Shown: in pieces, positions 2,861-62,915 of the stretch
How positions within the stretch are numbered: the stretch's first letter is position 1
Layout: each line of letters begins with the position of its first letter
Source of the DNA: an uncultured virus (IMG/VR IMGVR_UViG_2660238585_000005)
Lineage: Duplodnaviria > Heunggongvirae > Uroviricota > Caudoviricetes
Reading direction: 5' to 3' (one strand)
Virus record (IMG/VR): IMGVR_UViG_2660238585_000005
DNA length: 64,000 nt
The notes under the pieces: model-generated
Seen by the model: the letters and a program-made list of their open reading frames with translations, nothing else
What the model was told of the DNA's origin: nothing
The model's database searches: none
Translations under genes and position numbers: made by a program

Positions 2861-3382
2861 ATGAATTTTAAAAAACTTAAAAGCGGTATTGCATTATCAT
2901 TAATTATAGCTACAGTTTCAATACCTTTTTCAAACTCAATTTTCGCATTAGAAATTGCTAATTCTACTACACCAACTGAGTTTGTAGAAAATAAAAATAT
3001 AGGTATAGATGAAGTTTCTGAGTTCTTTGGGTTAACAAATAATGAAAAAAATGAATTTAGAAAATCAATTGATGAGTATAAAAAAGAAGAACAATTACGT
3101 CAAGAACATGAGTATAAAATCTATGGTAATCAATTTGGCAAATTAAGTTTATCAACGAAAGCGATGCGCAAAATATGGAGAAAGCTACCTTTTAAAGTAA
3201 GAAAAACAATAGTTCAACATACAGGTCTTACTGGTGCTGCAGCAATACAAAGTATTGTTTCAACAGTAGATCATTTTACAGGATCAGTAGAAGATGGTGT
3301 TTATAAAGCTTGTAAAAAACTAGGCATGAACAATCACTATTCTTGGTGGGTTACAAAAACAATAACCCTATTTTTATTATAA
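2861..3382 (+). CDS. Secreted protein with cationic, amphipathic C-terminal domain (bacteriocin-like?)
   Basis: GGAGG RBS, signal peptide, acidic spacer, basic helical C-terminus; function is inference. Confidence 0.6.
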   Translation: MNFKKLKSGIALSLIIATVSIPFSNSIFALEIANSTTPTEFVENKNIGIDEVSEFFGLTNNEKNEFRKSIDEYKKEEQLRQEHEYKIYGNQFGKLSLSTKAMRKIWRKLPFKVRKTIVQHTGLTGAAAIQSIVSTVDHFTGSVEDGVYKACKKLGMNNHYSWWVTKTITLFLL

Positions 3383-24800: not shown

Positions 24801-25484
24801 CTATTTTTTTATTGGTTCATTGAAAGAAGGCGGATTAATATCTATCTTTGTATTATGATTGTTAGGTCCCGGACTAGATAAGTCAAAGTATAGTTTAGAG
24901 TCTTCAGTAACTCCAAAGTCTCTATTTGAACCTGTATCTTTAATCTTATTTAATGCATCTCTAAATAAAGCATTATGAGCTTCTTCTCTGTTAAGTAAGA
25001 AGTCTATTGTTTCTCTTACATATTTATCGTCAATTTGTCTATATAAATATTCATATACAACTTTTGCTCTTTGCTCTGATGCTATATTTGATAATAGATC
25101 TGCAACTAAGTCTCCTGTTACAGTAACATAATCAGCAGTCCAAGGTGCTCCTGAAGAGTTTATTAAAAATGGTGATAATCCACTTAATACATGAGTTTCT
25201 ATTTCTCCAGAATCAACTGCTTTATAATCAACATCATGTCCATTTAATAAATTTATTGTTTGAGCAACCATTTCCATATGGCTAAGTTCTTCCGCTGCTA
25301 TATCTAGAAATAAATCTTTTATCTCTTTATCTTTTATTCTAAAGCTTTGAGATAAATATTGCATTGCTGCTTTTAACTCTCCATTTCCTCCTCCTAATTG
25401 CTCTTGCATTAAAACTGCATATTGAGGATTTGGTCTTTCTACTTTTACTTCTCTTAACAATTTTTTATCATGTTTAAACATCAA
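24801..25484 (-). CDS. Manganese catalase family protein
   Basis: EQLGGGNGELKAAMQY, EELSHMEM, REEAH metal ligands. Confidence 0.92.
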   Translation of the reverse strand: MMFKHDKKLLREVKVERPNPQYAVLMQEQLGGGNGELKAAMQYLSQSFRIKDKEIKDLFLDIAAEELSHMEMVAQTINLLNGHDVDYKAVDSGEIETHVLSGLSPFLINSSGAPWTADYVTVTGDLVADLLSNIASEQRAKVVYEYLYRQIDDKYVRETIDFLLNREEAHNALFRDALNKIKDTGSNRDFGVTEDSKLYFDLSSPGPNNHNTKIDINPPSFNEPIKK

Positions 25485-25748: not shown

Positions 25749-26297
25749 TTAAAAATATCTAAAGCTAGTATAAGCTTTATTCATTCTGTCTTGGTCTATA
25801 CCTATATAATGTAAGGTTACAGCTGGAGATGAATGATTAAATATCTTCTGAAGTAATGCTATATCTTTGGTTTGCTTATAGTAATGATATCCCCATGTTT
25901 TTCTCATACTATGAGTTCCTAAACAAGGAACATCGAATAATTCTCCCAACTCTTTTAAAATTACATATGCCCTTTCTCTAGAGATAGGCCTATTATAGTT
26001 TTTACGTGATTTAATTAAAAAATCATCAGGATCCTTGTCCTCTACATAATCTTTAATTGCTCTTTTCAGTATTGGGTTTATCTCTATGAATTTTTGTTTC
26101 CCTGTTTTCTTTTCTCTTAAGACTATTTGCCTTTTATCTTTTACATCATATATCCTAAGCTTCAATATATCTGATACTCTAAGACCTGTATATATACCCA
26201 TCATAAATAGAAGGTAGTCTCTTTCATTTGTCTTTTTTAAATATGAACACATATTTTCTAATGTATCTAAATTTCTAATAGGTTCTACATAGTTCAT
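25749..26297 (-). CDS. Small tyrosine recombinase (catalytic domain only)
   Basis: TGLRVSD, HSMRKT, FNHSS, LHYIG. Confidence 0.92.
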   Translation of the reverse strand: MNYVEPIRNLDTLENMCSYLKKTNERDYLLFMMGIYTGLRVSDILKLRIYDVKDKRQIVLREKKTGKQKFIEINPILKRAIKDYVEDKDPDDFLIKSRKNYNRPISRERAYVILKELGELFDVPCLGTHSMRKTWGYHYYKQTKDIALLQKIFNHSSPAVTLHYIGIDQDRMNKAYTSFRYF

Positions 26298-27209: not shown

Positions 27210-27467
27210 TTAATCAATAATATCTTTCATTTCCTCTAGACATTTTTCACATATAAAAATGTTTTTGATGTTTTTTAAATTCTCTTTTGATCCACATAAA
27301 ATACACGAATTATTATGTTTTTTAAGCTTAATAGTTCCATTTTCACATAATATTTCAACTGGATCATTTTCATTTATATTTAACATTCTTCTAAATTCCT
27401 TTGGTATTACGATTCTTCCTAGTGAATCGATATTTCTTACAATGCCTTTATTATTTTTGCCATTCAT
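27210..27467 (-). CDS. abrB: AbrB-family transition-state regulator
   Basis: GIVRNIDSLGRIVIPKEFRRML plus clostridial C-terminal CxxC...CxxC. Confidence 0.9.
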   Translation of the reverse strand: MNGKNNKGIVRNIDSLGRIVIPKEFRRMLNINENDPVEILCENGTIKLKKHNNSCILCGSKENLKNIKNIFICEKCLEEMKDIID

Positions 27468-30289: not shown

Positions 30290-30427
30290 TTTATTTAAAT
30301 CTATTAATTTATAAGTTTTACTTGTAGTTATATCTATCTACGTATATAATTAAATTGGAATTTTTTATTGGGTCCTTCTGGACTCTTTTTTTTATTTTCA
30401 TTAAATTAATGTTTTGAAATATTGTAT

Positions 30428-30550
30428 TTAACAATGTTGCTTGTCCTCTTTTTGCTTATTATAAGCTTTTAATTCATCAAATTTATTATCTAGTTCTTGT
30501 CCTAAATAGCTATATTTTTTCATAAAACTTTGAAGTATTTTTATACTCAT
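30428..30550 (-). CDS. 40-aa hypothetical protein MSIKILQSFMKKYSYLGQELDNKFDELKAYNKQKEDKQHC
   Basis: Translated by hand; AGGAGTG RBS. Confidence 0.55.
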   Translation of the reverse strand: MSIKILQSFMKKYSYLGQELDNKFDELKAYNKQKEDKQHC

Positions 30551-30589
30551 TTAACTCACTCCTTGTACAAATTTTCATTGCCAAAGAGC

Positions 30590-30856
30590 CTAAGCTCCTT
30601 GTTTATCGTTATATTCTTTAATCGCTATTTCTTTAGCTTCTTCATAACTCAAACCAGTTTCTTCTAACTCCTTTGTTCTAATCCATATTGGGTAAGCTAT
30701 ACTCAATGCTTCATCCCCATATTTTTCTCTTTGTCTATCAAGTATCCATTTAGCTTTTCTTCTTTCTATTTCCTCAATCCAATATGGATCTTCTGGGTAA
30801 ACTACCTCAACTTTTATTTCTCTGCTTTTTCTTGGTGCCATTGCAACCACCCCCAC
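30590..30856 (-). CDS. Small early protein, candidate recombination directionality factor (likely start ATG 30841)
   Basis: Beta strand-Pro-helix pattern, position after cro/antirepressor, sporulation-type promoter; function is inference. Confidence 0.55.
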   Translation of the reverse strand: MGVVAMAPRKSREIKVEVVYPEDPYWIEEIERRKAKWILDRQREKYGDEALSIAYPIWIRTKELEETGLSYEEAKEIAIKEYNDKQGA

Positions 30857-30859
30857 TAA

Positions 30860-30889
30860 ATTTTATGTTTATTAAAAATTGTCCTATGC
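30860..30889 (-). promoter_or_regulatory. sigmaE-like promoter with embedded SpoIIID-consensus site
   Basis: GCATA-N17-CATAAAAT; TAGGACAATT fits WWRRACARnY; same motif at 62886-62915. Confidence 0.65.
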
Positions 30890-30892
30890 AAT

Positions 30893-31453
30893 TTATCTTG
30901 ATTTACTAACTTCCAAATCTACTTTTACAGTAACTTTTGATTTTTCAAGCTCTTCTCTTTGTTCTGCTATTACAATTGTTTTAATATAATTTCTCAATCT
31001 TAAAACCTCTAATTCTTCTTCTTTTTGCTTTAAAAGAATCTCTTTGCTTTCTAGCGTTTTATTTAATATGTTTACAGCTTTTTCTAAGATTACTTTTTCA
31101 TCGTCTTCGGTGGATATTGGAATATATCCACCAGTAAGTCGTATCTGTTTTAATATTTTCTTAATTTCCTTTTTTAGCTTCTTAGCTATAGGTTTTCTAC
31201 TTTGCATTAAAACTTCATAAAGTCCATCTTCTGTTAAAAACCACATTTCTCTGACCTGACCACTATAATGTATCGGTGAGGTTTGTTTTTCATCTTGGTC
31301 AACTGACTTTAACAGTTGACCAACTTTATCACTAGAGTATCCTATCCATTCAGCTACATCCTTTGCTAAAAATAATGGATTTTCTAAAGTTCCAAATGTC
31401 GTTATTTCTTTTCCAAGAATTTTTCTACTGTCCAATATCTCAAAGTTATTCAT
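30893..31453 (-). CDS. BRO-N domain antirepressor-like protein
   Basis: PLFLAKDVAEWIGY, LTEDGLYEVLMQSRKPIAK, IRLTGGY. Confidence 0.9.
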   Translation of the reverse strand: MNNFEILDSRKILGKEITTFGTLENPLFLAKDVAEWIGYSSDKVGQLLKSVDQDEKQTSPIHYSGQVREMWFLTEDGLYEVLMQSRKPIAKKLKKEIKKILKQIRLTGGYIPISTEDDEKVILEKAVNILNKTLESKEILLKQKEEELEVLRLRNYIKTIVIAEQREELEKSKVTVKVDLEVSKSR

Positions 31454-31475
31454 TTCAATCCTCCTTTATATTTTA

Positions 31476-31853
31476 AGAACATTTTGTTCTTTTAGTTTTC
31501 AAAAAAAATTTCATCAATTGTAGAATTTAATACTAAAGCTATTCTTTTTGCTAAAAATATACCTGGATTTTTTTTACCTCTTTCTATCATAGATATATAG
31601 TCCTTTGTAACTCCTACTTGTTCTGCTAACTCTGATTGAGTTAAATTTTTATTTTTTCTATAGAACTTTAAATTACTTTTATACATATCTCACCTCTTTT
31701 AAGAACTTTTTGTTCTCTTTATATTATATATGTTATAGAACTTTTTGTTCTTAGTCAAGTATTTTTAGAATTTTTTGTTCCTTTCGTTTGTATTTGTTTT
31801 TATATCTGTAACAATGTGCTATATTTAACTTATAAAATAGAACAATTTGTTTG
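31476..31853. promoter_or_regulatory. Five operator palindromes AGAAC-N5-GTTCT around cro/repressor
   Basis: Exact copies at 31476, 31702 and 31737; degenerate copies at 31767 and 31839. Confidence 0.8.
31492..31686 (-). CDS. Cro-like XRE regulator
   Basis: LTQSELAEQVGVTKDYISMIERG. Confidence 0.92.
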   Translation of the reverse strand: MYKSNLKFYRKNKNLTQSELAEQVGVTKDYISMIERGKKNPGIFLAKRIALVLNSTIDEIFFEN

Positions 31854-31875: not shown

Positions 31876-32283
31876 ATGTTCGGAGAAAGATTAAAAGCAT
31901 TACGAAAATCACTAAATCTTACACAAAAAGAACTTGGAGAAAAATTAAACGTATCTGGAAGGGTTGTTGGCTACTATGAATCAAATGATCGTTTCCCCGA
32001 TAAAGATACTTTAACAAAAATAGCAGATTTTTTTGAAGTCTCTTTAGACTATTTACTTGGAAGAACAAATATTAAAAATAGCACTAATATAGATTCATTA
32101 AAGATAGATGAAAATGAAAAGGATGTGGAAGAATTATTAGAAGAAACTATGTCTCAAATATTAGATCAAAAAGGTCTTATGCTTAACGGACAAATAGTTG
32201 ATGATAATGACCTTGTTCTTTTAAGAAATGCAATTAGAAATGGAATTGAATTAGCTAAAACAATGCAAAAGTCTAAGAAATAA
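31876..32283 (+). CDS. ImmR/CI-like XRE repressor
   Basis: FGERLKALRK..LTQKELG..SLDYLLGRT; divergent from cro. Confidence 0.92.
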   Translation: MFGERLKALRKSLNLTQKELGEKLNVSGRVVGYYESNDRFPDKDTLTKIADFFEVSLDYLLGRTNIKNSTNIDSLKIDENEKDVEELLEETMSQILDQKGLMLNGQIVDDNDLVLLRNAIRNGIELAKTMQKSKK

Positions 32284-32295
32284 GGGGGGTTAAAT

Positions 32296-32745
32296 TTGAG
32301 TAGTATTAAAAATACAGTAAATAATTTAGTAACTAAGTTTAAAACAAGAAATCCATTTGAATTATGTGACTACTTAAACATCCCTATTCTTCATGAACCT
32401 TTAGGAAATATTAAAGGCTTCTTTCAAAATACACTTAATACTCCTATAATTCATTTAAATTCTAATTTAGATGAACATGAGATTAAGTGTGTTATTTCTC
32501 ATGAGCTTGGTCATGCAATTTTACATAAAAATCTTAATGTTTGCTTTTTAAAGCACTATACATTTTCAGTTACAGATAGATATGAAAATGAAGCAAATAA
32601 ATTCACAGCGGAGTTATTGATAGATGATAATATGCTTATCGATATTATGGAGGTAAATAATCTAATTACAATTGATGAATTAAGTAAATACTTTTCTGTT
32701 CCCACAGAGTTTATTTCTTATAAGTTTACAAATCTTAAGTTTTGA
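32296..32745 (+). CDS. ImmA/IrrE-family metallopeptidase
   Basis: HELGHAILH...ENEANKFTAELL. Confidence 0.92.
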   Translation: MSSIKNTVNNLVTKFKTRNPFELCDYLNIPILHEPLGNIKGFFQNTLNTPIIHLNSNLDEHEIKCVISHELGHAILHKNLNVCFLKHYTFSVTDRYENEANKFTAELLIDDNMLIDIMEVNNLITIDELSKYFSVPTEFISYKFTNLKF

Positions 32746-33672: not shown

Positions 33673-34393
33673 ATTTATATACTTTAAACTCTTTATTTAA
33701 ATCCTCTTTTAATGAATCTATAGATTTATTACTAAACTCTATGCTATCATTCGTTATTTCTATTTGTGTATCCCTTTCAGTTTTATAAACAAAATTTAAC
33801 ATACAACTTTTTCCAAAATTCCCAAAAAATTTTTCTACAAATGGATTTTTTATTAATTTTTCACTATCAAATAAAATCTTTAAATTGATTTGACTTTTCT
33901 CAAATTCTACTTGATTAAAAGATTGGCTTAAGCAATCATTTATTCTACTTATTCTTTTTATTAAATTTTTATAATTCAATTCATCTTCTATCTCAATATA
34001 AAGTTTTGACATTAAGTTATTATATTCTATCTCCACAGGGGTAGTGTTAAGTGTTATTATCTTCTTATAAATGCCATCACCTTCTAATGTATTCATTTCT
34101 TTTATATATTTTTCACCATATTCTTTACACATACAAGTGTATATCCTGTAAAATCCACCATCTTCTATATTGCACCCTCTATATGCTATGGAATATTTGT
34201 AATGAATATTTAAATTTTTAAACCTTAATAGTTTAAAATAGTTTTTTGGGATATTATAAAACATCGCTATTGCTGGAGCTGCTATCGGAGATAGGACAAT
34301 TATTGCATTTAATATAGTGTTATCAATTTTAAAAATATATCCTGCTAAAGTCGCTACTATAATTACAATTAGTGCAATTGTAGCGTCTCTCAT
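33671..34393 (-). CDS. Hypothetical protein with two N-terminal TM helices (accessory)
   Basis: AAAGGAG RBS; two hydrophobic segments followed by a soluble domain. Confidence 0.8.
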   Translation of the reverse strand: MRDATIALIVIIVATLAGYIFKIDNTILNAIIVLSPIAAPAIAMFYNIPKNYFKLLRFKNLNIHYKYSIAYRGCNIEDGGFYRIYTCMCKEYGEKYIKEMNTLEGDGIYKKIITLNTTPVEIEYNNLMSKLYIEIEDELNYKNLIKRISRINDCLSQSFNQVEFEKSQINLKILFDSEKLIKNPFVEKFFGNFGKSCMLNFVYKTERDTQIEITNDSIEFSNKSIDSLKEDLNKEFKVYK

Positions 34394-34899: not shown

Positions 34900-36492
34900 A
34901 TGGTTGCTGCTATATACTCAAGAAAATCAAAGTTCACAGGAAAGGGTGAATCTATAGAAAACCAAATACAGCTTTGCATGGACTATGCTAAGAACATAGG
35001 AATTAATGAATTTTTAGTATATGAAGATGAAGGTTTCTCTGGTAAATCTATGGATAGACCAAAGTTTAAAGAAATGCTTAAAGATGCTAAAGATAAAAAA
35101 TTTGATTATTTAATATGTTATAGATTAGATAGAATATCCCGTAATGTTTCTGACTTCTCTACTCTTATAGAAGATCTAAATAAGCTTAATATATCTTTCG
35201 TATCAATTAAAGAACAATTTGATACTAGTACTCCTATGGGACGTGCTATGATGTATATATCATCTGTATTTGCTCAGTTAGAACGAGAAACTATAGCTGA
35301 GCGTGTTAGAGATAACATGTATGAGTTAGCTAGAACAGGAAGATGGCTAGGAGGTATGCCTCCATATGGTTTTATTAGTACTCAAATTAACTACTATGAT
35401 GAAAATATGAACCAAAGAAAAATGTATAAACTTAAAGTTGATGAAGATACAATAGAAATTGTTAAATTGATATTTGATAAATATTTAGAGCTTAGATCAC
35501 TTTCAAAACTTTATAAATATATGTATGAGAATGGAATTAAAGGAACTCGTGGAGGTAACCTTGATCCTAGTGCCTTATCTTTAATCCTAAAAAATCCAGC
35601 ATATGTTAAAGCTGATAAAAGTGTAGTTGATTATCTAAGAAAGTCTAATATAGATGTTATGGGAGATATAGACAATATACATGGTATCCTAACTTATGCT
35701 AAAAATACAGATAGTCCTATAGCTGCTGTTGCTAAACATAAAGGTGTTATAGATTCTGATAAATGGATTGAAGCACAAAGGCTACTTAATGCAAATAAGG
35801 CTAAAGCTCCTAGAGCTGGAACTGGAAGTAAGGCATTATTATCAGGTCTTTTAAAATGTTCTAAGTGTAGCTCTAATATGAGAATTACTTATAAAAACTC
35901 TAAAAGCGGCACTATCTATTATTACATATGTGGAACAAAGAAATCTTTAGGAGTATCAGCTTGTGATTGTAAAAATATCAGATCTGATAAGGCTGAGTCT
36001 AAAGTTATAGATGAATTAAAAAATAAAAGTATTAAATCTATAATGTCAAGTTATAAAGATAGCAAGTTAGAAAACTCTAAGAATATTAAAAATATAAAAA
36101 CTGAGATAAACTCAATAAATAATCAAATTAAAGAAAAAGAAACATACATTGATAATTTAGTTATGCAATTAGCCAAGGTTACCGAAAGCTCTGCATCTAC
36201 TTTTATAATCAATAAGTTAGAATCTTTAAATAATGACTTATCTAATTTAAAATCACAATTAGAATCTTTAAATACTATGTCTATGGAAAATAAGCAAGTT
36301 GATATTAATATAAATATGCTTATAGATAATTTAAATAAATTTAATAAAGAAATTGATACCTCTGATATTAATAAGAAGAGACTGTTACTATCTACAGTAG
36401 TAGATTACATGACATGGGACTCTGATACAGACACAATAAAAGTAAACCTAATAGGTATCAATCCAAGCAATACTATAGCTTCAGATAAATAG
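34900..36492 (+). CDS. Large serine recombinase (integrase of prophage 1)
   Basis: YSRKS catalytic Ser, RLDRISRN, PPYGF, Zn ribbon CSKC..YYIC..C, coiled coil. Confidence 0.96.
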   Translation: MVAAIYSRKSKFTGKGESIENQIQLCMDYAKNIGINEFLVYEDEGFSGKSMDRPKFKEMLKDAKDKKFDYLICYRLDRISRNVSDFSTLIEDLNKLNISFVSIKEQFDTSTPMGRAMMYISSVFAQLERETIAERVRDNMYELARTGRWLGGMPPYGFISTQINYYDENMNQRKMYKLKVDEDTIEIVKLIFDKYLELRSLSKLYKYMYENGIKGTRGGNLDPSALSLILKNPAYVKADKSVVDYLRKSNIDVMGDIDNIHGILTYAKNTDSPIAAVAKHKGVIDSDKWIEAQRLLNANKAKAPRAGTGSKALLSGLLKCSKCSSNMRITYKNSKSGTIYYYICGTKKSLGVSACDCKNIRSDKAESKVIDELKNKSIKSIMSSYKDSKLENSKNIKNIKTEINSINNQIKEKETYIDNLVMQLAKVTESSASTFIINKLESLNNDLSNLKSQLESLNTMSMENKQVDININMLIDNLNKFNKEIDTSDINKKRLLLSTVVDYMTWDSDTDTIKVNLIGINPSNTIASDK

Positions 36493-36535
36493 GAACTTTA
36501 ATACATTTATCTGAAGCTATTTCTATGTCAGATAA
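36475..36535. other. Prophage 1 right junction (att) region
   Basis: Perfect 16-bp inverted repeat 36475-36490/36505-36520, third TCAGATAA at 36528; host ATPase frame resumes at ~36507. Confidence 0.75.
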
Positions 36536-36698
36536 GGTCGCAGTTTTATCCAAACGTCCTGCATCTATAAAAAGTATCTATACTATAGATTTAAAAATAT
36601 CAGAAACTAGAACTCCTATAATATCAAGAAGTGCTGAAAATTTTAAAGACTATTTTAATATCTTGTGGAAGGAGATTGATTCTAGTGAAACAAAATAA
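36507..36698 (+). pseudogene. 3' fragment of NitT/TauT-family ABC ATPase (YtlC-like), split by prophage 1
   Basis: Hand translation LSEAISMSDKVAVLSKRPASIKSIYTIDL...YFNILWKEIDSSETK*, the segment that follows the THD H-loop. Confidence 0.88.
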
Positions 36699-37488
36699 TG
36701 TATCACAAGGTCATAAACAATATTTAAAATCGCTAAAAAAAGAAAAGAATCTAATCTTTTTTTATCAAATATTTATATTGGTTGGATTTATAGCTCTTTG
36801 GGAATTACTTGCTAGACTTAATATAATAGATGTATTTCTATTTAGCAAACCTAGTGATATTTACAATCTTTTTATAAAATATATTCAAAATGGAGAATTA
36901 TTTAAGCATATATTAATATCTAGCTATGAGACAATAGTTGGATTAGCAGTTGGTACAATTCTTGGAATATTAGTAGCTATAATGCTTTGGTGGTCAGAAA
37001 GATTATCTAAAATACTTGATCCATTTTTGGTTGTACTAAATGCACTTCCTAAAACAGCATTAGCACCAATTTTAATAGTTTGGGCTGGAGCTGGTGTAAA
37101 TGGAATAATAGTTATAGCTATTACTATATCTGTTGTTGTTACTATATTATCCGCCTATAATTATTTTATAAGTGTTGATGAGGAAAAAGTCAAAATGCTT
37201 AAAAGTTTTGGAGCATCAAAACTTCAAATTCTTACAAAATTAATATTTCCTTCTAACATAGGAAATTTAATAAATTTAACTAAAATTAATATAGGTATGG
37301 CTTGGGTTGGCGTAATAGTAGGTGAATTCTTAGTATCTAGATATGGACTTGGGTACTTAATAGTTTATGGTGGCCAAGTTTTCAAATTAGATTTAGTAAT
37401 GATGGGAGTAATAGTATTAGCCCTTTGTGCTTTAATTATGTATCAAGTTTTAAATATAGCAGAAAAAATTTATAAAAGTAAAAGATAA
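36685..37488 (+). CDS. NitT/TauT-family ABC permease (YtlD-like); GTG start after GGAG
   Basis: LNALPKTALAPILIVW, AWVGVIVGEFL, GLGYLI. Confidence 0.92.
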   Translation: MKQNNVSQGHKQYLKSLKKEKNLIFFYQIFILVGFIALWELLARLNIIDVFLFSKPSDIYNLFIKYIQNGELFKHILISSYETIVGLAVGTILGILVAIMLWWSERLSKILDPFLVVLNALPKTALAPILIVWAGAGVNGIIVIAITISVVVTILSAYNYFISVDEEKVKMLKSFGASKLQILTKLIFPSNIGNLINLTKINIGMAWVGVIVGEFLVSRYGLGYLIVYGGQVFKLDLVMMGVIVLALCALIMYQVLNIAEKIYKSKR

Positions 37489-38539: not shown

Positions 38540-39097
38540 GTGATTTTTTTGCTAAAAAAATTAATAATATTAATAACTTTAATTACTAGCCTATCTTTGC
38601 TTCTCATTGGATGTACTCCTAAATCTCAAAGTATTAAATCTAAAAATTTAAATAAGCTAACTGTTGCAGAGGTAACCCATTCAGTATTTTATGCTCCACA
38701 ATATGCAGCTATAACTCAAGGTTTTTTTGAGGAAGAGGGCATTGAGTTAGACCTTATAAATACTCAGGGAGCAGATAAAACAATGGCTGCACTTCTTTCT
38801 GGAGAAGCAGATATAGGCCTTATGGGACCAGAAGCATCTATTTATGTATATAATAAAGGGAATTCAAATTATGCAGTAAATTTTGCGCAATTAACTCAAA
38901 AAGATGGAAGCTTTTTAGTTGCTCGTGAAAATACTGATAGTTTTTCTTTTGAGGATTTAAAAGGTAAAGAGGTTTTAGGTGGTAGAAAAGGTGGGGTTCC
39001 TGAAATGACATTAGAGTATGTTATGAAAAAAAATGGTCTAACTATAGGAACTGGTACTCAAAACGGTAAAGTAAATGTTAGAACCGATATTCAATAA
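38540..39097 (+). pseudogene. 5' part of NMT1/SsuA-type ABC substrate-binding lipoprotein (YtlA-like), truncated by prophage 2
   Basis: Lipobox LIGC, EVTHSVFYAPQY, GGRKGGVPEM; stops at 185 aa, about half the family length, where phage DNA begins. Confidence 0.88.
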
Positions 39098-62684: not shown

Positions 62685-62864
62685 CTATTTTTTAGTAGCT
62701 AACTTACCTTCTTGGTATAACCTTTTTGCTATTCTATAATTAATCTTTGCTATTCTGTCAAGGATTGCCTGAATTTCTTCATCTGTTTGCTTTCTTCCAA
62801 GCCTCACTTCTGGAGAAATTATTTCTATTATCGCATTTTCAGTTTCTACCTTATAAATATCCAT
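62685..62864 (-). CDS. 59-aa protein MDIYKVETENAIIEIISPEVRLGRKQTDEEIQAILDRIAKINYRIAKRLYQEGKLATKK, candidate RDF
   Basis: Translated by hand; AAGGGGGG RBS; follows sigmaE/SpoIIID-like promoter. Confidence 0.65.
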   Translation of the reverse strand: MDIYKVETENAIIEIISPEVRLGRKQTDEEIQAILDRIAKINYRIAKRLYQEGKLATKK

Positions 62865-62885: not shown

Positions 62886-62915
62886 TTTATATGAATTATA
62901 AAAATTGTCCTATTC
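62886..62915 (-). promoter_or_regulatory. sigmaE-like promoter with embedded SpoIIID-consensus site
   Basis: GAATA-N17-CATATAAA with TAGGACAATT; matches 30860-30889. Confidence 0.62.

Follow-up and report, generated by a model that had tools for sequence, protein, structure and literature searches.

The excision logic considered here is already known from the C. difficile skin element and from SPbeta of B. subtilis. In the available sections of PMC5025042, skin carries the large serine integrase CD1231 and the recombination directionality factor (RDF) CD1234. The locus described here resembles skin in several respects: a small acidic-helical ORF is divergent from a large serine integrase, its predicted sigmaE promoter has a short leader (13–14 nt for CD1234) and the layout ATA-RGACAA-N11-CATA, and the target is a mother-cell gene. 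The elements differ in that skin splits sigK and prophage 1 of the present DNA splits ytlC; in addition, homology between the small proteins is not detectable, and prophage 1 looks intact. SPbeta lies in spsM and uses SprA and SprB. As far as the accessible text of PMC4191935 goes, the likeness consists in an active-looking prophage, a sigmaK target gene and an RDF gene that closes an inducible transcript and also has its own mother-cell promoter. However, SPbeta is another phage type, the candidate RDF gene of prophage 1 (ORF83) belongs to the cro-ant early operon and is separated from the integrase gene by 4 kb, the target here encodes an ABC ATPase, and no sequence link to prophage 1 tested positive.

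Two further cases are related. The clostridial yin element in yabG of C. botulinum likewise interrupts a late sporulation gene and has a predicted small RDF and a mother-cell promoter; according to the excerpted text of PMC10747680 it differs in its target, has a sigmaK-type promoter and is unique to a strain, whereas the ytlC element is common to several genera. The mapped sigmaE promoter of CD1884 (PMC3789822) is almost identical to the ORF83 promoter, but CD1884 is listed as a conserved hypothetical protein and groups with ORF59 of prophage 2, not with ORF83. Its promoter and position suggest that CD1884 is the 93-aa ORF of an element that splits a binding-protein gene. A literature search, in which subscription journals were little covered, yielded no paper on ytlC or binding-protein elements or on their excision; excerpts of PMC7438776, PMC2784873, PMC3416734, PMC10294663 and PMC6957869 were also used. 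As far as the literature was searched, the ORF83 family, the target ytlC, the promoter signature common to unrelated RDF candidates and, in C. difficile, a roughly 24-kb element surrounding the eut cluster are new.

The window, i.e. the whole 64,000-nt stretch of DNA that was analyzed, contains two prophages side by side. Proteins that cluster with the flanking nitroreductase and with the integrase carry the name Paeniclostridium (Paraclostridium) sordellii. On the minus strand of prophage 1, the genes for lysis, tail, head, late regulators, rep, ORF40, ORF83, the anti-repressor and cro follow one another, and the plus strand carries cI, an ImmA-like protease gene, two cargo genes and the gene for a 530-aa large serine integrase with resolvase, recombinase and zinc ribbon domains (34900..36492, +). 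The gene content resembles that of a complete siphovirus. The upstream part (30893-31686) of the early operon cro-ant-ORF83-ORF40-rep consists of cro (31492-31686, -) and the gene for a Bro-N anti-repressor (ant; 30893-31453, -), and the divergent cI-like repressor and ImmA/IrrE-like protease genes occupy 31876..32745 (+). Several other genes were observed. To the left of the lysis genes lie a 477-aa VanZ-like-domain gene (1-1434, +) and a 173-aa secreted-looking gene (2861-3382, +), which are probably cargo because attL must be further left. The late region includes a 182-aa tyrosine-recombinase-domain gene (25749-26297, -) that is also found in the Romboutsia provirus L021. A manganese catalase-family gene (24801-25484, -), kept in 20 of 20 proviruses, and the gene for an AbrB/SpoVT-like regulator (27210-27467) may tie prophage 1 to sporulation.

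The reading frame that follows the integrase stop codon comprises the final 61 codons of an ABC ATPase gene. It represents the 3′ part (36513..36698, +; from codon 190 of 250) of a split ytlC-like gene that is cut just after the H-loop, and it is followed by the gene for the permease of the same transporter (ytlD/CD1904-like; 36676..37488, +). The 5′ part and attL fall outside the window, and attL of prophage 1 was not found in the virus records. An intact ytlC-like gene of 250 aa is present in genome G052, and the 5′ part was seen in G015, G017, G011 and G031. All of four attL and six attR sites share a GA at a glutamate codon four residues past the H-loop histidine, and the crossover in attR (36485..36542, +) was placed at this GA (36513-36514); an alternative AT crossover conflicts with attR and was discarded. 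The split gene, the integrase and the crossover core are thus evident at the level of the sequence. SigmaK promoters have been mapped for CD1927 and CD1891 (PMC3789822), and the promoter of the ytlC 5′ part in G011 is identical to that of CD1927 ytlC. The permease gene CD1904 is sigmaK-dependent and has no listed promoter in the available parts of PMC3789822 and PMC3738446, which would be expected if excision places CD1904 under the ytlC promoter. As in a gene-intervening element, the integrase gene is located beside one half of a split gene, an intact allele exists elsewhere, and the C. difficile ortholog is sigmaK-controlled.

Two public runs that are labelled as RNA and given as contigs also touch the attachment site; they possibly represent DNA or mixed strains, and therefore nothing about expression is derived from them. 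The contigs of run X15 branch exactly at 36513. One contig of run X18 departs from the window at 36520, 6 nt beyond the core; its next 22 letters are a mirror match to the left arm (14/22, shuffle p 0.004, versus 8/22 for the host arm), and 12–14 of the 22 letters agree with the attL arms of four other genomes (p 0.001–0.007). This junction looks attP-like, as expected for the excised form, although it is a single contig and lytic induction could produce one as well.

ORF83 (30590..30841, -) encodes 83 amino acids. The preliminary description had proposed a directionality factor of 83–88 aa; the shorter form was retained, and the 88-aa form starting at GTG 30856 was rejected, because the homologs begin at the same methionine (ATG 30841) and the GTG lies upstream of the predicted transcription start. 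The homologs are 56–94 aa long, with identities from 87% down to 27%. ORF83 had no match in Pfam, PHROGs or NCBIfam; annotated phages yielded no DNA or protein match, and the ESM Atlas no usable one. Its predicted structure (mean pLDDT 82.9) consists of an extended N-terminus and three helices, the third of which is absent from short homologs. A Foldseek search of the PDB gave no match at E 0.001, the VIA fold search gave generic helices and nothing specific (best Z 6.0), and a helix-turn-helix match was not obtained. Homology to the 72-aa CD1234-like proteins, which were recognized by promoter and length, was not detected (hhalign probability 0.1%, 7 columns). The ORF83 stop codon lies in the loop of an 8-bp hairpin (30582..30601, -; z -2.4) that has no U-tract and was not called as a terminator. 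Such a hairpin with z <= -2 (simple shuffles) is found in 5 of 7 phage-type loci versus 0 of 11 minimal loci, and it is a possible attenuator. About 20 nt further on (around 30560-30570, -), a GTACAAG string is kept in four distant phage-type loci, namely that of the window, L021, L064 and L105.

The association of ORF83 with the integrase was analyzed within the species and across the family. In all 20 proviruses compared, ORF83 is 99–100% identical and occurs with the same integrase and the same split gene; in these proviruses cI is 53–100% and cro 30–100% identical, and ant varies or is lost. Through decay, L001, L018, L019 and L020 lack cI and cro as well as ant, which is gone wholly or for the most part, and L005, L006, L013 and L018 lack the whole head and tail module. 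All of the decayed P. sordellii proviruses retain the integrase, attR and ORF83 with its promoter, but since ORF40, rep, AbrB and others are also retained in these remnants, retention there does not single out ORF83. The Romboutsia provirus L021 has kept ORF83 with the same integrase and target, whereas its replication and downstream genes are different. ORF40, ORF43, AbrB and ORF76 were discarded as RDF candidates, as they do not accompany the integrase in L021 or in two minimal elements that were inspected.

Among 112 genomes of the family, an ORF83 homolog was found in 14 and an integrase match at E 1e-60 in 29. The 14 genomes are G031 and the 13 with the best integrase matches, and no homolog occurs in the 83 genomes without an integrase match; the loci are related, so that these counts overstate independence. 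For G114 and G104, which have close integrases, the queries used revealed no homolog, and more distant homologs in G100, G099 and G054 were reached through the promoter motif (profile probability 90.7%). The homolog and the integrase gene are arranged head-to-head at a distance of about 130–380 nt in 9 genomes and in 2 metagenome contigs, and in these 11 loci neither the repressor nor early genes are located between them. In G116 the pair is located elsewhere and ytlC is intact. ORF83 is thus a small protein whose gene shares an element with the integrase gene and is co-inherited with it. The proposal of the preliminary description that ORF83 is the RDF accordingly drew support from gene context and co-occurrence and none from homology to CD1234 or from fold matches. 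The data strongly suggest that ORF83 serves as the RDF of the integrase, and it probably represents a new, sigmaE-driven RDF family.

The ORF83 promoter motif spans 30860-30889 on the minus strand and begins 4 nt past the anti-repressor stop codon, exactly where a sigmaE-type motif with a 17-nt spacer inside the early operon had been described. It consists of a -35 element GCATA (30885..30889; the sigmaE -35 is ATA), a conserved RGACAA box immediately 3′ of it (30877..30886) and a -10 element CATAAAAT of the mother-cell type (30860..30867), with 17 nt between GCATA and CATAAAAT, and it is followed by a putative ribosome-binding site (RBS; 30847..30854). A -35 ATA, a spacer of 16–18 nt and a -10 CATAnnnT, followed by an RBS and a start codon, as in sigmaE promoters, are therefore all present. 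Both halves of the motif are common in the window, and thus neither is meaningful alone: ATA-N17-CATAnnnT has 14 matches versus 11.4 expected (reached by 28 of 100 shuffles), and the SpoIIID consensus given in the preliminary description has 96 exact matches and 1295 with one mismatch. The composite ATARGACAA-N11-CATAnnnT occurs once exactly and three times with at most one mismatch, compared to 0.28 expected (1 of 100 shuffles); the pattern was chosen after the site had been seen, and outside evidence is therefore needed. Among 22 P. sordellii loci, 21 carry the motif without a mismatch, and three proviruses without cI, cro and ant still contain about 87 nt upstream of the ORF83 ATG. A third one-mismatch motif (34291-34318, +) lies in a variable cargo gene, is present in only 1 of 20 loci and was rejected. 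The near matches to the SpoIIID consensus at 30439 and 30495, which had been linked to the promoter, turned out to be 9/10 matches at chance level within the coding sequence of a 40-codon ORF without a family (ORF40; 30428..30550, -); they are conserved in 19/20 and 15/20 loci, respectively.

Outside evidence came from 47 mapped sigmaE promoters of C. difficile (Table S7 of PMC3789822). By our reading of this table, only two of them, CD1884 and CD1234, have RGACAA directly after ATA together with a 17-nt spacer, and from ATA through the end of the -10 element the CD1884 promoter agrees with the window at 25 of 28 positions. In the accessible parts of PMC3789822 and PMC3738446, expression of CD1884 is 0.11-fold in a sigE mutant in one study, and in a second study it changes by log2 -6.3 in the sigE mutant and is sigG-independent (log2 -0.7). 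CD1234 is reduced 25-fold by qRT-PCR without sigE (PMC5025042, excerpt); an RNA-seq study scored it as Spo0A-dependent only and not sigE-dependent (log2 -0.1; PMC3738446, excerpt). The mapped start of CD1884 is 15 nt before the start codon (PMC3789822), and the leader geometries of CD1234 and CD1884 would place the start of ORF83 at about 30854, with a 13-nt leader, which favors the 83-aa form. The ORF83 homolog of C. difficile (60 aa) is not listed in the table of strain 630 start sites that was searched, and the CD1234 promoter was not found in the virus records.

The spacing was also compared in 18 loci of the ORF83 family (the window, 14 genomes and 3 metagenome contigs, about 7 lineages). 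An RGACAA box with 5 or 6 of 6 matches is located 17 nt before the -10 element in 14 of the 18 loci; none of the other offsets between 12 and 24 has it in more than 4. The -35 element varies between the loci, a point against the sigmaE reading: P. sordellii, G087 and G031 have ATA, G083 and eight Clostridioides-like genomes have ATCA or GTCA, and the Romboutsia loci L021, L064, L065 and L066 and G020 have a sigmaK-like element (GTAACA). The near identity to the mapped CD1884 promoter and the fixed spacing, conserved across genera, strongly suggest that ORF83 is driven by a sigmaE promoter, as had been claimed.

The contribution of SpoIIID is less clear. SpoIIID binds the consensus WWRRACARnY, and TAGGACAATT (30886-30877), which overlaps the -35 element and the spacer of the ORF83 promoter, matches it at 10 of 10 positions. 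In B. subtilis, a SpoIIID box that overlaps the polymerase site generally indicates repression, not activation (PMC517825, available sections). CD1234 falls 40-fold in a spoIIID mutant, and the box proposed for it is 46 nt upstream (PMC5025042, excerpt). By eye, this upstream box is matched at 7 of 9 positions in the same register of the window, which carries little weight because AT-rich DNA easily yields such a match. For CD1884, the C. difficile expression table searched gives no SpoIIID value. The RGACAA box does form a conserved part of such promoters, and SpoIIID is one of its candidate binders. The chances that SpoIIID binds the box may be about even. Activation by SpoIIID, as the preliminary description had assumed, was not borne out by the repression-like position of the box and the missing CD1884 value, and seems doubtful.

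We consider it probable, and far more so than any other reading, that ORF83 is the RDF of the 530-aa integrase and has two inputs, the cro promoter for the lytic cycle and the internal sigmaE promoter for sporulation. Upon lytic induction, ORF83 would be read from the cro promoter within the early operon, as its position suggests. During sporulation, the internal promoter would be used in the mother cell only, as predicted from its near identity to a mapped promoter. Integrase and ORF83 would then bring about recombination between attL and attR at the GA in codon 190 and thereby restore the ytlC-like ATPase gene. SigmaK would subsequently transcribe this gene together with the permease gene, and the spore would retain the prophage. 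Dual expression would parallel that of sprB. The sprB analogy and the stop-codon hairpin, which may limit read-through into rep, hint faintly at a quiet excision without lytic induction.

Alternatively, the mother-cell promoter could be real and ORF83 the RDF, but read-through into rep might induce the whole prophage, leading to phage replication or particle formation while the mother cell dies. The minus strand lacks an intrinsic terminator between ORF83 and rep, the sole terminator-like site (30370-30385) faces the opposite way, and prophage 1 looks like a complete siphovirus. The bias of the stop-codon hairpin towards phage-type loci argues against induction, as do the monocistronic transcription of sprB in sporulation (PMC4191935, accessible text) and the minimal elements, which contain nothing to induce; we regard this alternative as unlikely. 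Only slightly less probable is that ORF83 is not the stoichiometric RDF but an accessory partner, which acts on integrase expression as a regulator or anti-repressor or serves as a second factor. ORF83 is unlike proven RDFs, its divergent placement would suit a regulator too, and the CD1905 start site is about 100 nt from the promoter of the ORF83 homolog. RDFs as a class share no motif according to the excerpted text of PMC12286644, however, and the ORF83 model lacks a helix-turn-helix match. Moreover, the 72-aa CD1234-like proteins have the same promoter and placement, CD1234 and the integrase suffice for excision in the available part of PMC5025042, and near the integrase gene of several minimal elements, of which two were inspected, there is no further small ORF that they share.

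Finally, ORF83 could be the RDF while the motif is read by another system, either sigmaF/G of the forespore or a regulator of phage or host origin that has no link to sporulation. GCATA also suits forespore -35 elements, RGACAA has no proven binder, and CD1234 was scored as only Spo0A-dependent in the one study. Because the near-identical CD1884 promoter depends on sigE and not on sigG, the -10 element has the mother-cell form and the motif persists in elements without a repressor, we consider this reading very improbable.

RDFs are hard to find because they have no common sequence motif or fixed position (PMC12286644, excerpt). The pattern WHARGACAA-N11-CATAnnWT was searched in 112 Peptostreptococcaceae genomes, and 74 had a hit. 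The 60 ATA-type matches, without the already known G087, were fetched together with 40 non-ATA controls, from which nine known ORF83-locus matches, all but one of the G057/G060/G061 repeat copies and some others had been excluded. A large serine recombinase gene within 9 kb upstream, always divergent, was found for 37 of the 60 ATA-type matches, many of which are orthologs, versus 0 of 40 controls; for matches with at least 6 kb of upstream DNA the fraction was 36 of 53. An ORF of 52–93 aa with an RBS 14–33 nt after the -10 element followed 40 of the 60 ATA-type matches and 1 of the 40 controls. Sorted by hand, the small proteins include CD1234-like (5), CD1884/ORF59-like and ORF83-like proteins and at least two other groups, and profile links join only some of the groups. 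ATA-type matches without an integrase include six before larger genes and five copies of one Clostridioides site (L194, L197, L199, L206, L209). This site has the full motif but lacks both an integrase gene in the 9 kb upstream and a following ORF with a clear RBS, and it could represent a small RNA or a missed short gene. A non-ATA motif recurs as an identical string 14 times in G057, once in G060 and nine times in G061, and is probably part of a repeated mobile element.

We hypothesize, with even chances of being right, that unrelated RDF families of the Peptostreptococcaceae share the signature ATA-RGACAA-N11-CATAnnWT, either by convergence or as an inherited swappable module, and that it couples excision to the mother cell. 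The signature would then find RDFs without homology and predict that up to three C. difficile elements are excised in sporulation, namely skin, the binding-protein element, for which CD1884 would be the RDF, and the ytlC element with eut. A promoter pattern that picks RDF genes would yield dozens of testable integrase-RDF pairs, and it suggests functions for CD1884 and for the unannotated ORF beside CD1905. The third excision, by CD1905 and the unannotated 60-aa ORF83 homolog, would remove the whole ethanolamine-utilization cluster from the mother-cell chromosome. By implication, the annotated C. difficile pseudogenes CD1927 and CD1891 would be rebuilt in sporulation and the eut cluster would be cargo.

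Prophage 2 offers a second example within the window. It splits a substrate-binding protein gene of the same transporter (ytlA/CD1891-like), of which the 5′ part (38549..39097, +) is cut at about 39095; the gene is intact (348 aa) in L063, and the cut position is identical in the window and in the 15 other P. sordellii loci that reach it. A second copy of the promoter layout (62886..62913, -) follows cro and precedes a 59-aa ORF (ORF59; 62685..62864, -) of the CD1884-like family, which is a relative of the 93-aa ORF that follows the CD1884 promoter and is a candidate RDF of prophage 2. The stop codon of ORF59 is associated with a strong hairpin (z -5.3), and the integrase gene of prophage 2 (509 aa) lies beyond the window and was seen in L150 and L151. 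In the C. difficile-like genome G011 (L127:9971-20000, L141:1-13184), the ytlC-splitting element is about 24 kb long and contains the whole eut cluster, with gene names read from translations and the start-site table, flanked by the 5′ part of ytlC on one side and by the ORF83 homolog with its integrase on the other. In G017 and G015 (L120:7131-12209, L121:7183-12309), the same ytlC element is only about 4.3 kb long, and its cargo is a release-factor-3-like GTPase gene.
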